A stretch of 28,075 nucleotides of DNA from a virus (Duplodnaviria > Heunggongvirae > Uroviricota > Caudoviricetes), in the IMG/VR virus record IMGVR_UViG_2585427787_000005. One strand, written 5' to 3'. Positions 20,986 to 25,466 of the stretch are shown one piece after another. Made by a program: the position numbers and the translations under genes. How positions within the stretch are numbered: position 1 is the stretch's first letter; each line of letters starts with the position of its first letter. Under the pieces are notes generated by a model. It was not told where the DNA came from. It was given only the letters and a program-made list of their open reading frames with translations, and did not search any database.

Positions 20986-21148
20986 GATTCCTCCTTGCTG
21001 CCAGTCGCAACCATTTTTTATCAACCAGGCTAGCGGTATATCCGAGCAGAGTTGGTATTTCGGATGGCTTCAGCTCAGGCTTACGCTTACGACGATTTGA
21101 TACTCTGTAGATGTGTCCGTTCATGACACGAATAAGCGGTGTAGCCAT
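20978..21148 (-). CDS. ninE: NinE
   Basis: Hand translation gives [56 protein letters not shown] (56 aa). AGGAGG ribosome-binding site. TAATG overlap with the ybcN stop. Below the ORF-track size cutoff. Confidence 0.85.
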   Translation of the reverse strand: MATPLIRVMNGHIYRVSNRRKRKPELKPSEIPTLLGYTASLVDKKWLRLAARRNHG

Positions 21149-21603
21149 TACGCCTCCTGCTTGTCGCGGAGCAGCTGGAACTCGCAGCTCTGCGGAATAG
21201 TCAGGTGGCAGCCAATATTCACCGCCCAGGCTTCAACCTTACACAGGAAGATATACATCTCTCCGGTATCAAGATCGGAGGTATGGCGTAACGACTGGAT
21301 AGTGGTGATCTCACCGGTTACGACATCAACCAGGTCTTTGGTTTCATAACCGAGATATGTGTGTTTGAGAGCATCTTTTACCCAAGCTGGAGTGGCGAAC
21401 GTTTTACCCCTGCTGATGAGGTATTCACTGATTTCGCTGTACCACATGTGGCTGAGTGCATTCTGGGAAAGACTGCGTTTCTCACGCCACGGTTTAAGCA
21501 CCATGCGAAAGCATTTGCCTTCCTCCAGATAAGGCTGGATCTGCTGGCCGATAGCGGTGAAGTTACCACGATGCAATTTGATGCCGTCTTGTGGGAGGTT
21601 CAC
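21148..21603 (-). CDS. ybcN: YbcN-like nin-region protein
   Basis: 151-aa ORF (GTG start) [55 protein letters not shown] with GGAGGTG ribosome-binding site. Same order ybcN-ninE-ybcO-rusA-ylcG-Q as recalled for DLP12. Confidence 0.88.
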
Positions 21604-21636
21604 GCTTCACCTCCGCAGAGGTCAAACGCTGGATGC

Positions 21637-21721
21637 AAAAAATCGCAGGTGCATCTCTGCATCTGTGAAGGGAGAAGAGAGTTTGGATTGTATGTGCGCA
21701 TAAACGTCCCCGTTTAGCGCA
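21637..21721. repeat. 85-bp direct repeat, copy A (just upstream of ybcN)
   Basis: AAAAAATCGCAGGTGCATCTCTGCATCTGTGAAGGGAGAAGAGAGTTTGGATTGTATGTGCGCATAAACGTCCCCGTTTAGCGCA differs from copy B (23571..23655) at 5 of 85 positions. Ends in an imperfect 10-bp hairpin GCGCATAAACG-tcccc-CGTTTAGCGC. Confidence 0.9.
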
Positions 21722-21797
21722 GAAGTCACCGGAGTTGTTCAAGCTCCAATGGCATGATTATGGCTGGTTGATTATTGGAAATCAAATGTGCTGAAAA

Positions 21798-22307
21798 TTA
21801 GTCTGCCAAGTCTTCCTCAGTCGCAACTGGGTAATTCCAAATATCAAAAAAAGCTATAGCCTCCTGCCATTTGCTCCATAAGTTATCAAGTACTTGTGTA
21901 GGTTCCGTACTTTTAAAAACAGAATCAGCCGCATCACCGTTATGAACTTCCTCGTACAGTTCCATTATTAGCAGATTAACAAAGTACTGTTTCAACATTA
22001 ATGCCTGATTACCTTCTTTCTGCTGGCTATCCTGCTTGATGAGCTCCATCGCCCGTACTAGGCACCTGATGATATCCGCTGCATCATTAACGCTCCATTC
22101 AGATCCGCGCTTATCTTTAGCTGATGAATTGGCTCTCTCAGCGCAAGCCTTTAAAGACTCATAAAGGTAAACTCTATTTTGTAGCTGCAGCGCTTTTTTT
22201 GACGTGCACCAACTTGCAAGCGCCGACCCCGCTGCGGCTAATGTGCCAAACGCAGAAATGCCTGCTGCTATTGCACTTAAGTCGGCACTGTCAAAGTTCC
22301 ACATCAT
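21798..22307 (-). CDS. Hypothetical membrane-anchored protein (169 aa), function unknown
   Basis: ORF MMWNFDSADLSAIAAGISAFGTLAAAGSALASWCTSKK with one predicted N-terminal transmembrane helix followed by a charged, probably helical domain. No family recognised by eye. Confidence 0.7.
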   Translation of the reverse strand: MMWNFDSADLSAIAAGISAFGTLAAAGSALASWCTSKKALQLQNRVYLYESLKACAERANSSAKDKRGSEWSVNDAADIIRCLVRAMELIKQDSQQKEGNQALMLKQYFVNLLIMELYEEVHNGDAADSVFKSTEPTQVLDNLWSKWQEAIAFFDIWNYPVATEEDLAD

Positions 22308-22472
22308 CGTTACACCTTATATAAACACCCCTCAGTAATATCCAATAAGGTATGTGAACAATCAATATAATTTATATCCGTATCGGCACATAGCGATTTT
22401 AATGCTACTGATAATGGTATCTTTTAGATTATATCGTCCAGTTCCAGTACCCGTATTTTATGAAATGGACTC

Positions 22473-22512
22473 GCACATTACCAAAAAAAATGCCAGCACT
22501 TCCGTCATCGCA
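22473..22512 (-). terminator. Rho-independent terminator between the Bro-N-like gene and the 169-aa gene
   Basis: Minus strand reads GCCAGCA-ttctgcgatgacggaag-TGCTGGC followed by ATTTTTTTTGG. 7-bp stem at 22482..22488 and 22506..22512 with a long 17-nt loop, which weakens the call. Confidence 0.6.
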
Positions 22513-22542
22513 GAATGCTGGCAGTATTTCTAACTAGTGACT

Positions 22543-23151
22543 TTATTGCAACAGATTCTGACGGAAATATGGTAACACACGACTCCACTTATCATCCTGC
22601 CACGGTTGGAATTTTACATGCGCCGTTTCTCTGGCAAGGATTTCTCGCGCCCTGTTGAGTATCCGAGGATATTCTTGTTCGATTGAAGTGAATCTACCTG
22701 CTTCGCGATGCTCTGCGACCTGAAGAAGGGGCGTAACGTTCTGGCAGGCGGTTAACATCGTATCACTTGCTCGCCATAACCAGGCGAGTGTGCAAAGTTC
22801 GTTATCAGTGAATTGTTTTGTGATTGGGGATTGTTGAACTTCTCGATCGAGAATATCCAGAACCCAGCGGCGGAATTCTTTGGCCACAGGAGTACGAGCA
22901 AACATGGCGATCAAATGGGCTCCGCGAAGGCTAAATACTCGAGACTCCTGCATTCCACGAGGGGTGGTCACTTTGACCACCCTTGTCATCATATCTGTGA
23001 ATTCATCTGAGTGCCGAGAGTAAATGCGCTGAACTGCTTTATCGTCCGCATATTCCAGTGCTAAACCAACTTCAGTGGCAGTAAGCCAAATTCTGTTATT
23101 GTGGCAAATCGGGGTAAACGTCGTTTTGTGGAATGCTAATTGAGTAGTCAT
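22543..23151 (-). CDS. Bro-N-like domain protein (antirepressor / Roi-like family candidate)
   Basis: 202-aa ORF MTTQLAFHKTTFTPICHNNRIWLTATEVGLALEYADDKAVQRIYSRHSDEF...RVFSLRGAHLIAMFARTPVAKEFRRWVLDIL. Matches the recalled Bro-N consensus pattern (W-x-x-A-x-[DE]-V-x-x-x-L, then S-E-x-G-[LV]-Y-x-L-I, then A-x-x-F-x-x-W-V). Family assignment is by eye. Confidence 0.65.
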   Translation of the reverse strand: MTTQLAFHKTTFTPICHNNRIWLTATEVGLALEYADDKAVQRIYSRHSDEFTDMMTRVVKVTTPRGMQESRVFSLRGAHLIAMFARTPVAKEFRRWVLDILDREVQQSPITKQFTDNELCTLAWLWRASDTMLTACQNVTPLLQVAEHREAGRFTSIEQEYPRILNRAREILARETAHVKFQPWQDDKWSRVLPYFRQNLLQ

Positions 23152-23414
23152 AGTATCACCTCATCAGGTTAACCATCACCACCAACGACGCCAATCGACT
23201 GGTGGTGAACTGTGTAAGGTTGGCGTAACCGGCTACTCAAACCCGGCGCTTCCGAAGAAGCCCTCACACAGCCCACCATAATTTGGGCATAGCCGTGCTT
23301 AGCGCACAAAAAAACCGCTTAACGCGGTATGCGTTGAGTAGTATCCCGGGACGCCAATCCCGTGTGCCGATTTTGCGGCAACGCACAGAATATAGCGCCG
23401 GATAAATCATGTCG

Positions 23415-23504
23415 TCAACCCCAGTAAATGGACACCATGATGATCACAGCCATAGCTGCTACAACAGTTACAACTACCTCAGGCCAAAACATAACGATTT
23501 CCAT
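23415..23504 (-). CDS. Candidate small hydrophobic peptide (29 aa; alternative 25-aa start at 23492)
   Basis: Minus-strand ORF ATG GAA ATC GTT ATG TTT TGG... gives MEIVMFWPEVVVTVVAAMAVIIMVSIYWG, a single transmembrane-like helix. AAGGTGA lies just upstream. Immediately downstream of repeat copy B. Below the ORF-track cutoff. Confidence 0.3.
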   Translation of the reverse strand: MEIVMFWPEVVVTVVAAMAVIIMVSIYWG

Positions 23505-23570
23505 ATCACCTTTAGCCGCCAGACGAATAGAGACTCCCAATTCTGGCTGTCGAAGTAAAACACCGAATGT

Positions 23571-23655
23571 AAAAAATCGTAGGTGCATTTCTGCATCTGT
23601 GAATGGAGATGAGAGTTTGGATTGTGTGTGCGCATAAACGTCCCCGTTTAGCGCA
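23571..23655. repeat. 85-bp direct repeat, copy B
   Basis: AAAAAATCGTAGGTGCATTTCTGCATCTGTGAATGGAGATGAGAGTTTGGATTGTGTGTGCGCATAAACGTCCCCGTTTAGCGCA. See copy A. Confidence 0.9.
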
Positions 23656-23963
23656 ACCCCACCACCGGGTGTTCAGGCCGACAGTAACTATATTATTCCC
23701 TACTGATTTTTGAAAATCAAAGGTCTTTATACGTCACACGAGAGCAAATATTTCCGAAGAAGAAACCTTTCGCCTTGAAAGGATAAAGAGTTCATTTCAT
23801 AAATTGAAATATTCAATAAGAATATTGCAAAAAATGAAATTATTTACTAGCGAGTCTATCTAACTGATAATTATGAAGATTGTAAGCGGTAGCAATCACC
23901 CGCATACACATTGAACAGGATTTAATACAAAACGTCTTAAATTGTCCGTAAGGAATAGCACGA

Positions 23964-25466
23964 ATGACTCAAACTCCTCTATTACTTGCAATCATATTTT
24001 TATTGGTTGTTCTTGTTCTTTATATAGCTGCAATCAAACGCATCAAAAAAATACAATTAGAATTAAGTGATAGCAATCAAAAAAATGAAGAATACAAATC
24101 TCGCTTTGCAGATTATTTTAATGTAGAAGAAGAATGTAAGAAGCTTATTGAGAAAACAGAGCAAGAATGCTCCATAATAAAAGAAGAATCCCTAAAAGTA
24201 AAAGAAAATGCCAATAATGAACTAACAAACACCATTGAAAAAATGGATGGTATCAATAAACAAATCCAAGAGCTAAGAAGAACTTATAAAGAGAAGAAAG
24301 AAATATATGATAAACTAGTAAGGCAAATTTCTATTTATTCAGAAGATGTTGAGCTAGCCGAACTAGGATTTTACGAACCTCATTTTAATTTTGAAGATTC
24401 AGAGCAATTTAAAAACAAAATAAAATCCATCAGGGATGAACAGAAATTAATGCTGCGGGATAAAACCCACTCTGGCGCAGTATATTGTACAACCCAATGG
24501 ACTGTTGAAGGCTCTCGAGCAGAGGGTAAAAAAATGACAGACAGAAATATCAGGCTAACTACTAGAGCATTTAATAATGAATGTGATGCTGCAATTAGCA
24601 ATTGCACGTGGAAAAACATCACTAAAATGGAAGAACGCATCACAAAGGCATTTGAGGCCATAAATAAACTAAACGAGCAAAATCACATATATATAAACAC
24701 TAAATACCTCAATAAAAAACTTGAGGAATTGTGGCTTACCCATGAATATCGTGAGCAAAAACAGAAAGAAAAAGAAGAACAGGCAGAAATAAGGGCACAA
24801 ATGAGAGAGGAGGAGCGTGCACAACGAGAAATAGAAAAGGCCATGCAAGACGCAGAGGCAGAAGAGCGCCGTTATAAAAAAGCAATTGAAGCTGCAAGAA
24901 AGGAAATGGAAAAAGTTACTGGTGACATGAAGCAGCGCCTCGAAAATCGCATTGCCGAACTAGAACAGAGTTTGTCGCAGGCTGAATCAAAGCATCAAAG
25001 AGCATTATCCATGGCACAACAAACCAAACAAGGTCATGTTTATATTATTTCGAACATAGGTTCTTTTGGGGAGAATGTTTATAAAATAGGCATGACACGA
25101 CGTCTTGATCCGCAAGACCGTGTAAATGAGCTCGGTGATGCATCTGTTCCTTTTATTTTTGATGTACATGCCATGATTTATTCGGAGGACGCTCCATCAT
25201 TAGAAAAAAAACTACATGATGTCTTCGATAAAAAGAGAGTCAATCTTGTAAATCGTAGAAAAGAGTTTTTCTATGTTACTCTGGATGAGATCAAAGAAGC
25301 TGTTAAAAAACACTCTGATTCAGAAATTGAATTTATTGAGACAGCAGTCGCAAAAGACTTTAATGAGTCATTGGCTATTCGTAATCATGAAAATAAAAAA
25401 AGTGACAACAGCAACTCATCAATTATACCTGAGCGAAAAACCCCAGAGTTTGCAGATGCAATTTAA
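23964..25466 (+). CDS. AT-rich cargo protein (500 aa): N-terminal transmembrane anchor, coiled-coil segments, central DUF4041-like region and C-terminal GIY-YIG-like (T5orf172-type) putative nuclease domain
   Basis: ORF MTQTPLLLAIIFLLVVLVLYIAAIKRIKK (transmembrane helix). Lys/Glu-rich coiled coils (e.g. EYREQKQKEKEEQAEIRAQMREEERAQREIEKAM). C-terminal GHVYIISNIGSFGENVYKIGMTRRLDPQDRVNELGDASVPFIFDVHAMIYSEDAPSLEKKLH has GIY-YIG-like spacing (VYI...10 aa...YKIG, then Arg, then Glu). Composition is visibly AT-rich against the flanking phage DNA, and the gene is on the opposite strand. Domain names are from recall. Confidence 0.85.
   Translation: MTQTPLLLAIIFLLVVLVLYIAAIKRIKKIQLELSDSNQKNEEYKSRFADYFNVEEECKKLIEKTEQECSIIKEESLKVKENANNELTNTIEKMDGINKQIQELRRTYKEKKEIYDKLVRQISIYSEDVELAELGFYEPHFNFEDSEQFKNKIKSIRDEQKLMLRDKTHSGAVYCTTQWTVEGSRAEGKKMTDRNIRLTTRAFNNECDAAISNCTWKNITKMEERITKAFEAINKLNEQNHIYINTKYLNKKLEELWLTHEYREQKQKEKEEQAEIRAQMREEERAQREIEKAMQDAEAEERRYKKAIEAARKEMEKVTGDMKQRLENRIAELEQSLSQAESKHQRALSMAQQTKQGHVYIISNIGSFGENVYKIGMTRRLDPQDRVNELGDASVPFIFDVHAMIYSEDAPSLEKKLHDVFDKKRVNLVNRRKEFFYVTLDEIKEAVKKHSDSEIEFIETAVAKDFNESLAIRNHENKKSDNSNSSIIPERKTPEFADAI

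Follow-up and report, generated by a model that had tools for sequence, protein, structure and literature searches.

In the trpL, tnaC and mgtL leaders, and in synthetic 'bicistronic designs', translation of a short leader decides the expression of what lies downstream. Here we describe a candidate unit of this general kind in IMG/VR virus record IMGVR_UViG_2585427787_000005 (Caudoviricetes; 28,075 nucleotides, hereafter the window), where two copies of it, A and B, lie on the minus strand at either end of an antirepressor cassette. With the described attenuators and couplers the unit shares a short open reading frame (ORF) with a Shine-Dalgarno (SD) sequence, hairpins in and after that ORF, a buried downstream SD and an ATGA or GTGA stop/start overlap. 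Unlike trpL, tnaC and mgtL, it has neither regulatory codon runs nor a conserved arrest peptide, shows no evident choice between terminator and antiterminator that is kept across genera, and answers to no known signal; it also has its own promoter and 5' hairpin, and moves between phages whole.

The closest described locus is orf33 of phage 82, which is ylcH in Escherichia coli K-12; both belong to the same locus and sequence family as copy A. The 1996 phage 82 record (X92588) marks, at the same place, a putative -35/-10, an inverted repeat labelled 'possible regulator-binding site', a ribosome-binding site and orf33, and copy A matches it (~50-235, ahead of a ybcN/orf151-type gene) at 97.1% identity over 136 nt. 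Overall, copy A is 96-97% identical to the phage 82 and K-12 DLP12 locus. In K-12 the element lies between ybcM and ybcN, and the 33-aa hypothetical protein that PGAP places there is ylcH. Copy A has the 33-codon ORF with its stop/start overlap in common with these loci, whereas copy B lacks the overlap and has 53 codons. The records are bare annotations, without RNA structure, coupling hairpin, family conservation or cassette duplication. The phage 82 inverted repeat had been read as a DNA site; it corresponds to the first hairpin described below (H1), which G-U pairs and covariation identify as an RNA hairpin. In the phi80 record the second hairpin is labelled IR4, of which we found no account, and our literature search on ylcH, ybcN and ybcM returned almost nothing. 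What is already known is the orf33/ylcH annotation, the putative promoter and the inverted repeat, and conserved lambdoid junctions are an old idea. What appears to be new is the covarying four-hairpin leader with its coupled ORF as a family, the breadth of that family, its role as a homology patch and a case of an empty site.

Two other systems invite comparison. In P1 immI (c4-icd-ant) and Gifsy-1 isrK-orf45-anrP, as in the window, isrK and C4 lie directly upstream of a Bro-N/P22AR antirepressor; here, by contrast, the cassette sits in a DLP12-like nin region, with a small hydrophobic ORF ahead of it, and is bracketed by two copies of the nin leader. The 'linkers' at lambdoid junctions and relaxed recombination with defective prophages (PMC3945230) likewise involve a short conserved module border with unrelated flanks and a crossover inside. 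In contrast to a neutral linker, the junction here is a selected regulatory unit, which explains its persistence.

The original prediction for this DNA was an 85-bp direct repeat with 80 identical positions, and it is borne out by a recount (21637-21721 against 23571-23655, same orientation) and by shuffling, as the best 85-mer pair in 20 shuffles of the window reached only 35-39 matches. The copies also stand where they had been placed relative to the genes, these being read on the minus strand. A repeat search lengthens the pair to 104 nt at 89% identity (21618-21721 and 23552-23655, spacing 1934), and in alignment a fainter homology covers ~170 nt in all, reaching further out on one side. 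The ~20 bp of weaker similarity reported beyond each copy is confirmed and corresponds to the loop and 3' arm of H1; the stem of this hairpin is not the same in the two copies and still pairs in both. An imperfect hairpin had been described as ending both copies; it is present in both (GCGCATAAACG-tccc-CGTTTAGCGC) but, in the direction of transcription (minus strand), belongs to the early part of the unit. The proposed element thus holds as an RNA and as a boundary, but its size is ~170 nt and not 85, it belongs to the minus strand, and it includes a promoter and a small ORF. A covariance model, R1, built solely from relatives elsewhere and without the window copies, finds two places in the 28-kb window, both on the minus strand and corresponding to copies A and B, the next match having an E value of 0.87 (cmsearch; Table 1).

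Each unit opens with a predicted sigma-70 promoter, which scores at least 8/12 at the same place in 216 of 224 distinct instances. A score of at least 9/12 is reached by 67% of instances, the figure falling to 0.9% at a control position 100 nt upstream and to 4% in shuffled sequence. At least five hexamer pairs share the position, TTGATT-17-CATAAT being the commonest; other forms include TTGCTT-17-GATAAT, TTGATA-17-CATAAT, TTTGCA-18-GATAAT, TTGCAA-17-CATAAT and a TGnTATAAT extended -10. The DNA upstream of the -35 is unrelated among instances and often ends in a canonical intrinsic terminator. Upstream of copy B, a terminator-like hairpin (23766-23782, minus strand; CCTTTCAAGGCGAAAGG followed by a T-rich tract) lies 46 nt from the -35 and fits the terminator-then-promoter layout seen upstream of many family members.

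A palindrome, TTGATTTCCAATAATCAA, overlaps the -35 of copy A. In the form TTGATTT-N4-6-AAATCAA it covers the leader -35 at 21768-21785 and 23703-23720 (minus strand) and in 101 of 224 family members. It may be an operator for some regulator, and is left unaccounted for by the mechanism proposed below. Another version of the promoter carries TGATAATCATT, which may resemble a Fur box. Control of the palindrome by FNR or Fur was considered and set aside; for FNR the spacing would be wrong.

Downstream of the promoter come four predicted hairpins and a leader ORF. H1 starts 4 nt after the -10 box, so that a transcription start at the usual distance would put it at the 5' end of the RNA. Its stem exists in ~50 versions, all making one fold around the conserved loop YCUGRRCAM; many of them use G-U pairs, which assigns the structure to the minus strand. 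The second hairpin, H2, has a stem of 10-11 bp in at least six versions and a GGGA loop in all. With the preceding G this loop forms a GGGGA SD, and an AUG or GUG follows 6-7 nt on, in the 3' arm.

From this SD-preceded start in H2, an ORF of 31-33 codons runs in 214 of 229 distinct instances, with length differences that amount to whole codons. Its TGA overlaps the ATG or GTG of the next gene (as GTGA or ATGA) in 215 of 220, although these next genes come from several unrelated families. The first ~10 codons are not conserved; they are C-rich and G-poor (mean 10.5 C and 3.1 G in 28 nt). Within the ORF lies the third hairpin, H3, with 3+3+4 bp, two A.C mismatches and a GAAA loop, then GAUUUUCUGCAU. 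Its general form is GUC-A-CNG-A-UGNN-GAAA-NNCA-C-CNG-C-GAU, then UUUCUGCAUUC; its energy is -8 to -14 kcal/mol with the two mismatches, and UUUUCU or U6 comes after it. The A.C mismatches were unchanged in every variant scanned, while the GAAA loop was fixed by the search pattern. The fourth hairpin, H4, pairs the SD and start codon of the next gene in a stem of 10-12 bp, of which relatives have three covarying versions; its median energy is -15.2 kcal/mol, and it is at or below -10 kcal/mol in 98.6% of instances. Copy A has all of these parts. Copy B is a modified unit in which promoter, H2 and upper H3 are intact, H1 is weak and the lower H3 stem is broken.

The hairpins bear the marks of selection on RNA. 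On 96 distinct sequences, pairing holds in 96.6% of cells, compared with 85.7% after shuffling and 23-40% with slid partners. Changes on both sides were counted for 8 of 10 pairs in H1, 10 of 10 in H2 and 3 of 10 in H3 (21 of 30 in all; values reached by 0 of 500 shuffles), counts that derive in part from a model-fitted alignment. On a structure-free MAFFT alignment, H1 and H3 are again found by RNAalifold. An alternative long hairpin, GAUGCAGAAA/UUUUCUGCAU, is the RNAfold favourite in E. coli types; in the Klebsiella types its 5' arm changes while the 3' arm stays constant, and we rejected it as not conserved.

H3, being read both as RNA and as codons, tells which of the two is kept. In the Klebsiella type the encoded SQMQKCTC becomes SPMAKATG through changes that are all non-synonymous, while the stem passes from CAG/CUG to CCG/CGG and from UGCA/UGCA to UGGC/GCCA. 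A targeted scan found further compensated H3 stems (UGGC/GUCA, UGCU/AGCA, UGAC/GUCA and others). Such pair-preserving, non-synonymous changes indicate that the RNA structure dictates the peptide. Frame, start codon and overlap are preserved all the same, which argues that translation matters and not its product. Pfam, NCBIfam and PHROGs gave nothing for the 33-aa and 53-aa leader peptides, and we rejected a conserved small protein on this count together with the pair-preserving substitutions.

The element is widespread in enterobacteria and their phages. It occurs in 2,886 of 5,426 complete E. coli genomes, in up to four copies per genome, and 44 phage records matched, including phage 82, phi80, HK225, HK639 and Klebsiella and Enterobacter phages. 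Two different anchor patterns found it in 120 and 117 IMG/VR stretches. Representative genomes of 25 Enterobacteriaceae species carry it, among the genera Enterobacter, Citrobacter, Escherichia, Pseudescherichia, Raoultella, Leclercia, Lelliottia, Siccibacter, Superficieibacter and Scandinavium. Its place is always upstream of NinB-like or other nin genes. An Rfam scan had been proposed for the repeat, and there neither copy matched any family even at E <= 10; the only matches were isrK, C4 and c4-a1b1, all inside the cassette. One instance lies on a 1115-nt contig of an actinobacterial assembly, Kocuria sabuli (L251), and is most likely enterobacterial contamination.

The DNA around the unit is highly mosaic. 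The flanks of 224 distinct instances fall into 109 upstream and 17 downstream clusters in 144 combinations. Second copies were found by R1 search at five other loci (L030, L031, L041, L100 and L112), four of which enclose the same antirepressor at 76-100% amino-acid identity. In L100 (6840-11919), a 380-aa ORF, a 620-aa colicin/pyocin-like ORF and an 84-aa immunity-like ORF lie between the copies; a 271-aa Q-like gene comes immediately after the second copy, and after the first there is a truncated NinB-like remnant. In 108 E. coli genomes, at least 80% of the arrangement seen in the window is present.

Comparison with strains that lack the intervening DNA had been suggested as a check, and E. 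coli 1297KP is such a strain. It has the same DUF4041/SNIPE gene and ybcN as flanks, with a lone leader copy between them and no cassette. This copy is a hybrid, with promoter and H1 like those of copy B and ORF tail and H4 like those of copy A, the switch falling within H2 or the first codons. That is what homologous recombination between the copies predicts, for insertion and deletion alike. The comparison thus shows that the 1.9-kb antirepressor cassette was inserted or removed, to judge from the hybrid sequence by recombination between leader copies. An immI-like cassette (hydrophobic ORF, isrK, C4, ant, cargo gene) has its own leader unit at its head, and homologous recombination at the leader copies leads to its gain or loss. 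The original prediction had offered a module boundary and a regulatory or RNA element as alternatives. The mosaic flanks, the other two-copy loci and the empty site with its hybrid copy speak for the first, the compensatory changes in three hairpins for the second, and the data support both together. The locus is a concrete, sequence-level case of lambdoid mosaicism, in which a selected leader serves as the homology patch for swaps of cassettes that include antirepressor modules, likely defence genes and bacteriocin-like genes.

We favour, with a probability of roughly 60%, the reading that the unit is a portable cassette of promoter and leader, which uses translation of the leader to gate the nin/Q operon and doubles as a recombination junction. 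H1 would protect or stabilize the 5' end of the RNA, and H2 would set how often ribosomes enter the leader. A ribosome on the leader would shield the C-rich, G-poor stretch, which is a possible site of Rho entry, and would unwind H3, which would otherwise act as a pause or weak terminator at the U-rich tract. Because of H4, translation of the first gene would depend on a ribosome that arrives via the leader, melts H4 and reinitiates at the GTGA or ATGA overlap. With H3 and H4 both dependent on the ribosome, the unit would be a translation-gated attenuator and coupler. Such a design would free the expression of the downstream gene from that gene's own sequence, and would suit a unit that is recombined in front of varied genes.

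The unit precedes an operon that ends in Q in more than half of complete E. coli genomes, so it could be a general, overlooked control of prophage late genes and of rusA. For annotation, a leader ORF within a structured RNA describes ylcH better than 'hypothetical protein' does. The unit is also a natural counterpart of the promoter, 5' hairpin and bicistronic junction of synthetic biology.

Published expression data bear on the K-12 copy. Term-seq of MG1655 recorded a low-abundance 'orphan' 3' end at 572349/572350 on the plus strand (PMC7815308, supplements 1 and 3). This end lies in ...GGUGACUUCUG, 6 nt past H1 and 19 nt before the ylcH AUG, equivalent to ~21720 (minus strand) in the window. 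It indicates an RNA that runs through H1 and, if the predicted promoter is used, a short RNA or decay product of ~35 nt. The ylcH RNA was 2.03-fold higher in microaerobic growth (PMC8910356).

Several points weigh against leader-gated expression. The K-12 3' end could come from ybcM read-through or decay, and in the literature we found no measurement of a transcription start, of translation or of termination for the element. The alignment behind the covariation counts is, as noted, in part model-fitted. The other two frames are also mostly open across the leader, which makes openness alone weak evidence. Simple rules for intrinsic terminators rate H3 as weak: it was flagged in an alternative register only, and in the Klebsiella version not at all; the U tract after it is interrupted in several variants, including K-12. 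Copy B has neither H4 nor the overlap, so that the coupling model does not fit it as it stands. Finally, the model offers no reason for the invariance of the H1 loop, of the two A.C mismatches and of the GAAA loop; at the heart of the mechanism there may instead be a bound factor or a tertiary contact.

A second reading is one that we hold as tentative. In it the element is a very common, previously undescribed cis-regulatory RNA family of enterobacterial lambdoid prophages, the leader codons are subordinate to the internal GNRA hairpin H3 with its A.C mismatches, and H3 and the H1 loop are recognized by a specific factor (a protein, the ribosome or RNA polymerase, or a tertiary contact), making an N-independent checkpoint on the nin genes and Q. 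If true, it would explain the silence of rusA and quuD in K-12 DLP12.

The unit might instead be the gene of a trans-acting small RNA (sRNA) of ~125 nt, with promoter, H1, H2, a C/A-rich seed, and H3 and its U tail as an Hfq-type terminator, resembling the prophage sRNAs or sponges made constitutively in lysogens. We consider this improbable. The layout is sRNA-like, the C/A-rich stretch resembles GcvB-type target mimics, and short RNA 3' ends occur in K-12; a precedent is StxS, a short RNA that arises when transcription from a prophage promoter terminates early (PMC7547250). However, no part of the unit is less conserved than the would-be seed, interruptions of the U tail are frequent, and the K-12 3' end falls after H1 rather than H3. 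An sRNA would have no need of a conserved frame, a stop/start overlap or H4, and there was no match to an Rfam sRNA family, AgvB and AsxR included. An AgvB-type anti-sRNA, suggested by the CA-rich stretch, was rejected: Rfam gave no match, the unit shows no relation to the published AgvB sequence, and conservation is lowest in the CA-rich part. Among the EcOnc sRNAs of enterohaemorrhagic E. coli, EcOnc10, the sole entry compared, was rejected as well; it sits in the Sp12 lysis/terminase region and not in nin.

The unit's slot lies between the replication/ren genes and the NinB-like gene, ahead of Q, and in lambda the same slot (P/ren to ninB) is filled by the terminator tR2. The element could accordingly be a tR2-equivalent terminator or insulator, in which H1 and/or H3 stop unmodified PR polymerase while promoter and ORF are incidental, a proposal that we also judge unlikely. 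The correspondence of slots, the U-rich tract after the H3 hairpin and the K-12 3' end just past H1 agree with it. Yet tR2 is a simple intrinsic terminator without promoter or leader ORF, whereas the terminator-like hairpin of the unit is weak and lies inside an ORF. A terminator would not require the conserved H2, H4 and reading frame; promoter hexamers are kept in at least five versions, and a canonical terminator often already stands upstream.

Antitermination is a further possibility, and quite an improbable one: H1, H2 and/or H3 would act in cis as a put-like or nut/boxB-like RNA that alters RNA polymerase or brings in a phage factor, with processive antitermination carrying transcription from this promoter to Q. 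Like putL of the lambdoid phage HK022, the unit has two stem-loops directly past a promoter, ~60 nt in total (PMC9378689), and specific recognition is suggested by the GNRA loops of H2 and H3, by the invariant A.C mismatches and by the H1 loop. But put has bulges and a triplex (PMC9378689) where the unit's stems are plain helices, the unit lies in the nin region rather than at PL or PR, and its second hairpin doubles as a translation initiation region. There was no sequence or structure match, and a search of HK022 (27000-40751) with R1 and filters off gave at best 8.6 bits (E 0.63), in a one-way test that used no put model; on this ground we rejected identity with put RNA. No conserved boxA-like sequence precedes H3, and the phages that carry the element differ in their Q and N types.

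That the repeat simply reflects the duplication of a gene for a small YlcH-family protein, with the peptide as the functional product, is highly unlikely. The ORF has a good SD in more than 93% of instances and is annotated in K-12 and phage 82, and the original prediction had foreseen a shared coding end as grounds for abandoning the element. The repeat does overlap the first two-thirds of the 33-codon ORF, but it is the RNA pairing that is conserved and not the peptide. The peptides diverge freely (MRTYNPNS.., MRPQSELL.., MAHKTLQQ.., MTQLNATS..), and their sole conserved block changes in pairs, SQMQKCTC giving SPMAKATG, SQMLKSTC or SQMAKVTC, always non-synonymously. Their C-terminus is the SD of the next gene read in frame, and none matches a Pfam, NCBIfam or PHROG entry. 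A functionless linker that persists only through recombination would suit the highly mosaic flanks and is barely credible given compensatory changes in four helices and a frame and overlap maintained across genera. Each of these rivals covers some features; none explains H4, the promoter, the overlap and the conserved frame all at once.

Table 1. The two leader units, their component parts and the associated genes and RNAs, with positions in the window.
Feature	Positions	Strand	Basis
Copy A, whole leader unit, -10 box to U-rich tract	21624..21763	-	R1 cmsearch 95.9 bits, E 4.6e-24
Copy A promoter-like site, TTGATT-17-CATAAT	21757..21785	-	Consensus scan 9/12
Copy A H1, 8-bp stem, 9-nt loop CUUGAACAA	21727..21751	-	RNAfold; 8/10 model pairs changed on both sides; RNAalifold on plain MAFFT alignment
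Copy A H2, loop GGGA (21707-21710) as SD, leader AUG (21699-21701) in 3' arm	21695..21721	-	Folding; 10/10 pairs changed on both sides
Copy A leader ORF, 33 codons, TGA stop overlapping ybcN GTG start (GTGA)	21600..21701	-	PGAP hypothetical protein; = phage 82 orf33, K-12 ylcH
Copy A H3, UC-A-CAG-A-UGCA-GAGA-UGCA-C-CUG-C-GA then U6, within leader ORF	21637..21669	-	Folding; compensatory variants in relatives
Copy A H4, sequesters ybcN SD (GGAGG) and start codon	21602..21629	-	RNAfold -14 to -17 kcal/mol
ybcN (NinB/Orf-like), first gene of nin-Q operon behind copy A	21148..21603	-	NF007281 E 1e-83; phrog_72
Copy B, whole leader unit	23558..23698	-	R1 cmsearch 84.2 bits, E 6.3e-21
Copy B promoter-like site, TTGATT-17-AATAAT	23692..23720	-	Consensus scan
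Copy B H1, loop CCUGAACAC, stem unlike copy A, mostly G-U pairs, -4.9 kcal/mol	23660..23686	-	Folding, R1
Copy B H2, identical to copy A	23629..23655	-	Alignment, folding
Copy B leader ORF, 53 codons, no H4, no stop/start overlap, crosses start of small hydrophobic ORF	23474..23635	-	ORF list, comparison
Copy B H3-like hairpin and U6; upper stem and GAAA loop intact, lower stem weakened, CUG -> CUA	23571..23603	-	Folding, R1
29-aa hydrophobic ORF (MEIVMFWPEVVVTVVAAMAVIIMVSIYWG), good SD, between copy B and isrK	23415..23504	-	phrog_4612 E 1.7e-16
c4-a1b1 target motif, overlaps isrK	23343-23395	-	RF03163, 39.6 bits, below gathering
isrK-like RNA with terminator	23308..23380	-	Rfam RF01394, 58.7 bits (gathering 50)
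C4 antisense RNA	23198..23283	-	Rfam RF01695, 74.8 bits (gathering 45)
Antirepressor, Bro-N and P22AR_C domains	22543..23151	-	Pfam PF02498, PF10548; PHROG anti-repressor Ant
169-aa ORF, function unknown	21798..22307	-	phrog_1779 E 1.7e-102

The window is a DLP12-like prophage, as in E. coli 118UI. The genes around the repeats are on the minus strand, apart from one opposite-strand gene, and the leader units share the strand of the nin/Q genes. In the order of transcription, replication protein P, a Ren-like gene and the opposite-strand DUF4041/T5orf172 gene precede copy B; the 29-aa hydrophobic ORF, the isrK-like RNA, the C4 antisense RNA, the Bro-N/P22AR antirepressor and the 169-aa ORF lie between copy B and copy A; and copy A is followed by ybcN (NinB-like), ninE, ybcO, rusA and the Q antiterminator, then an OmpC-like porin.

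Judged by its sequence, the DNA between the copies is a module like P1 immI and Gifsy-1 isrK-anrP, placed in a DLP12-like nin region; no icd-like ORF was identified in it. The hydrophobic ORF is annotated elsewhere with 57 aa (23415-23588), its start then being an ATG inside H3 of copy B. The slot of the 169-aa ORF holds HEPN or alpha/beta-hydrolase genes in other E. coli genomes, and so looks like a variable cargo slot, possibly for defence. A 16-nt inverted repeat, 94% complementary (22457-22472 and 23788-23803), encloses copy B and the antirepressor gene and may be due to chance. The opposite-strand gene between ren and copy B (23964-25466, plus strand) encodes 500 aa with DUF4041 and T5orf172/MUG113 domains; in the annotation of strain 1297KP it carries a 'SNIPE associated domain', and it looks like a moron or a defence candidate.

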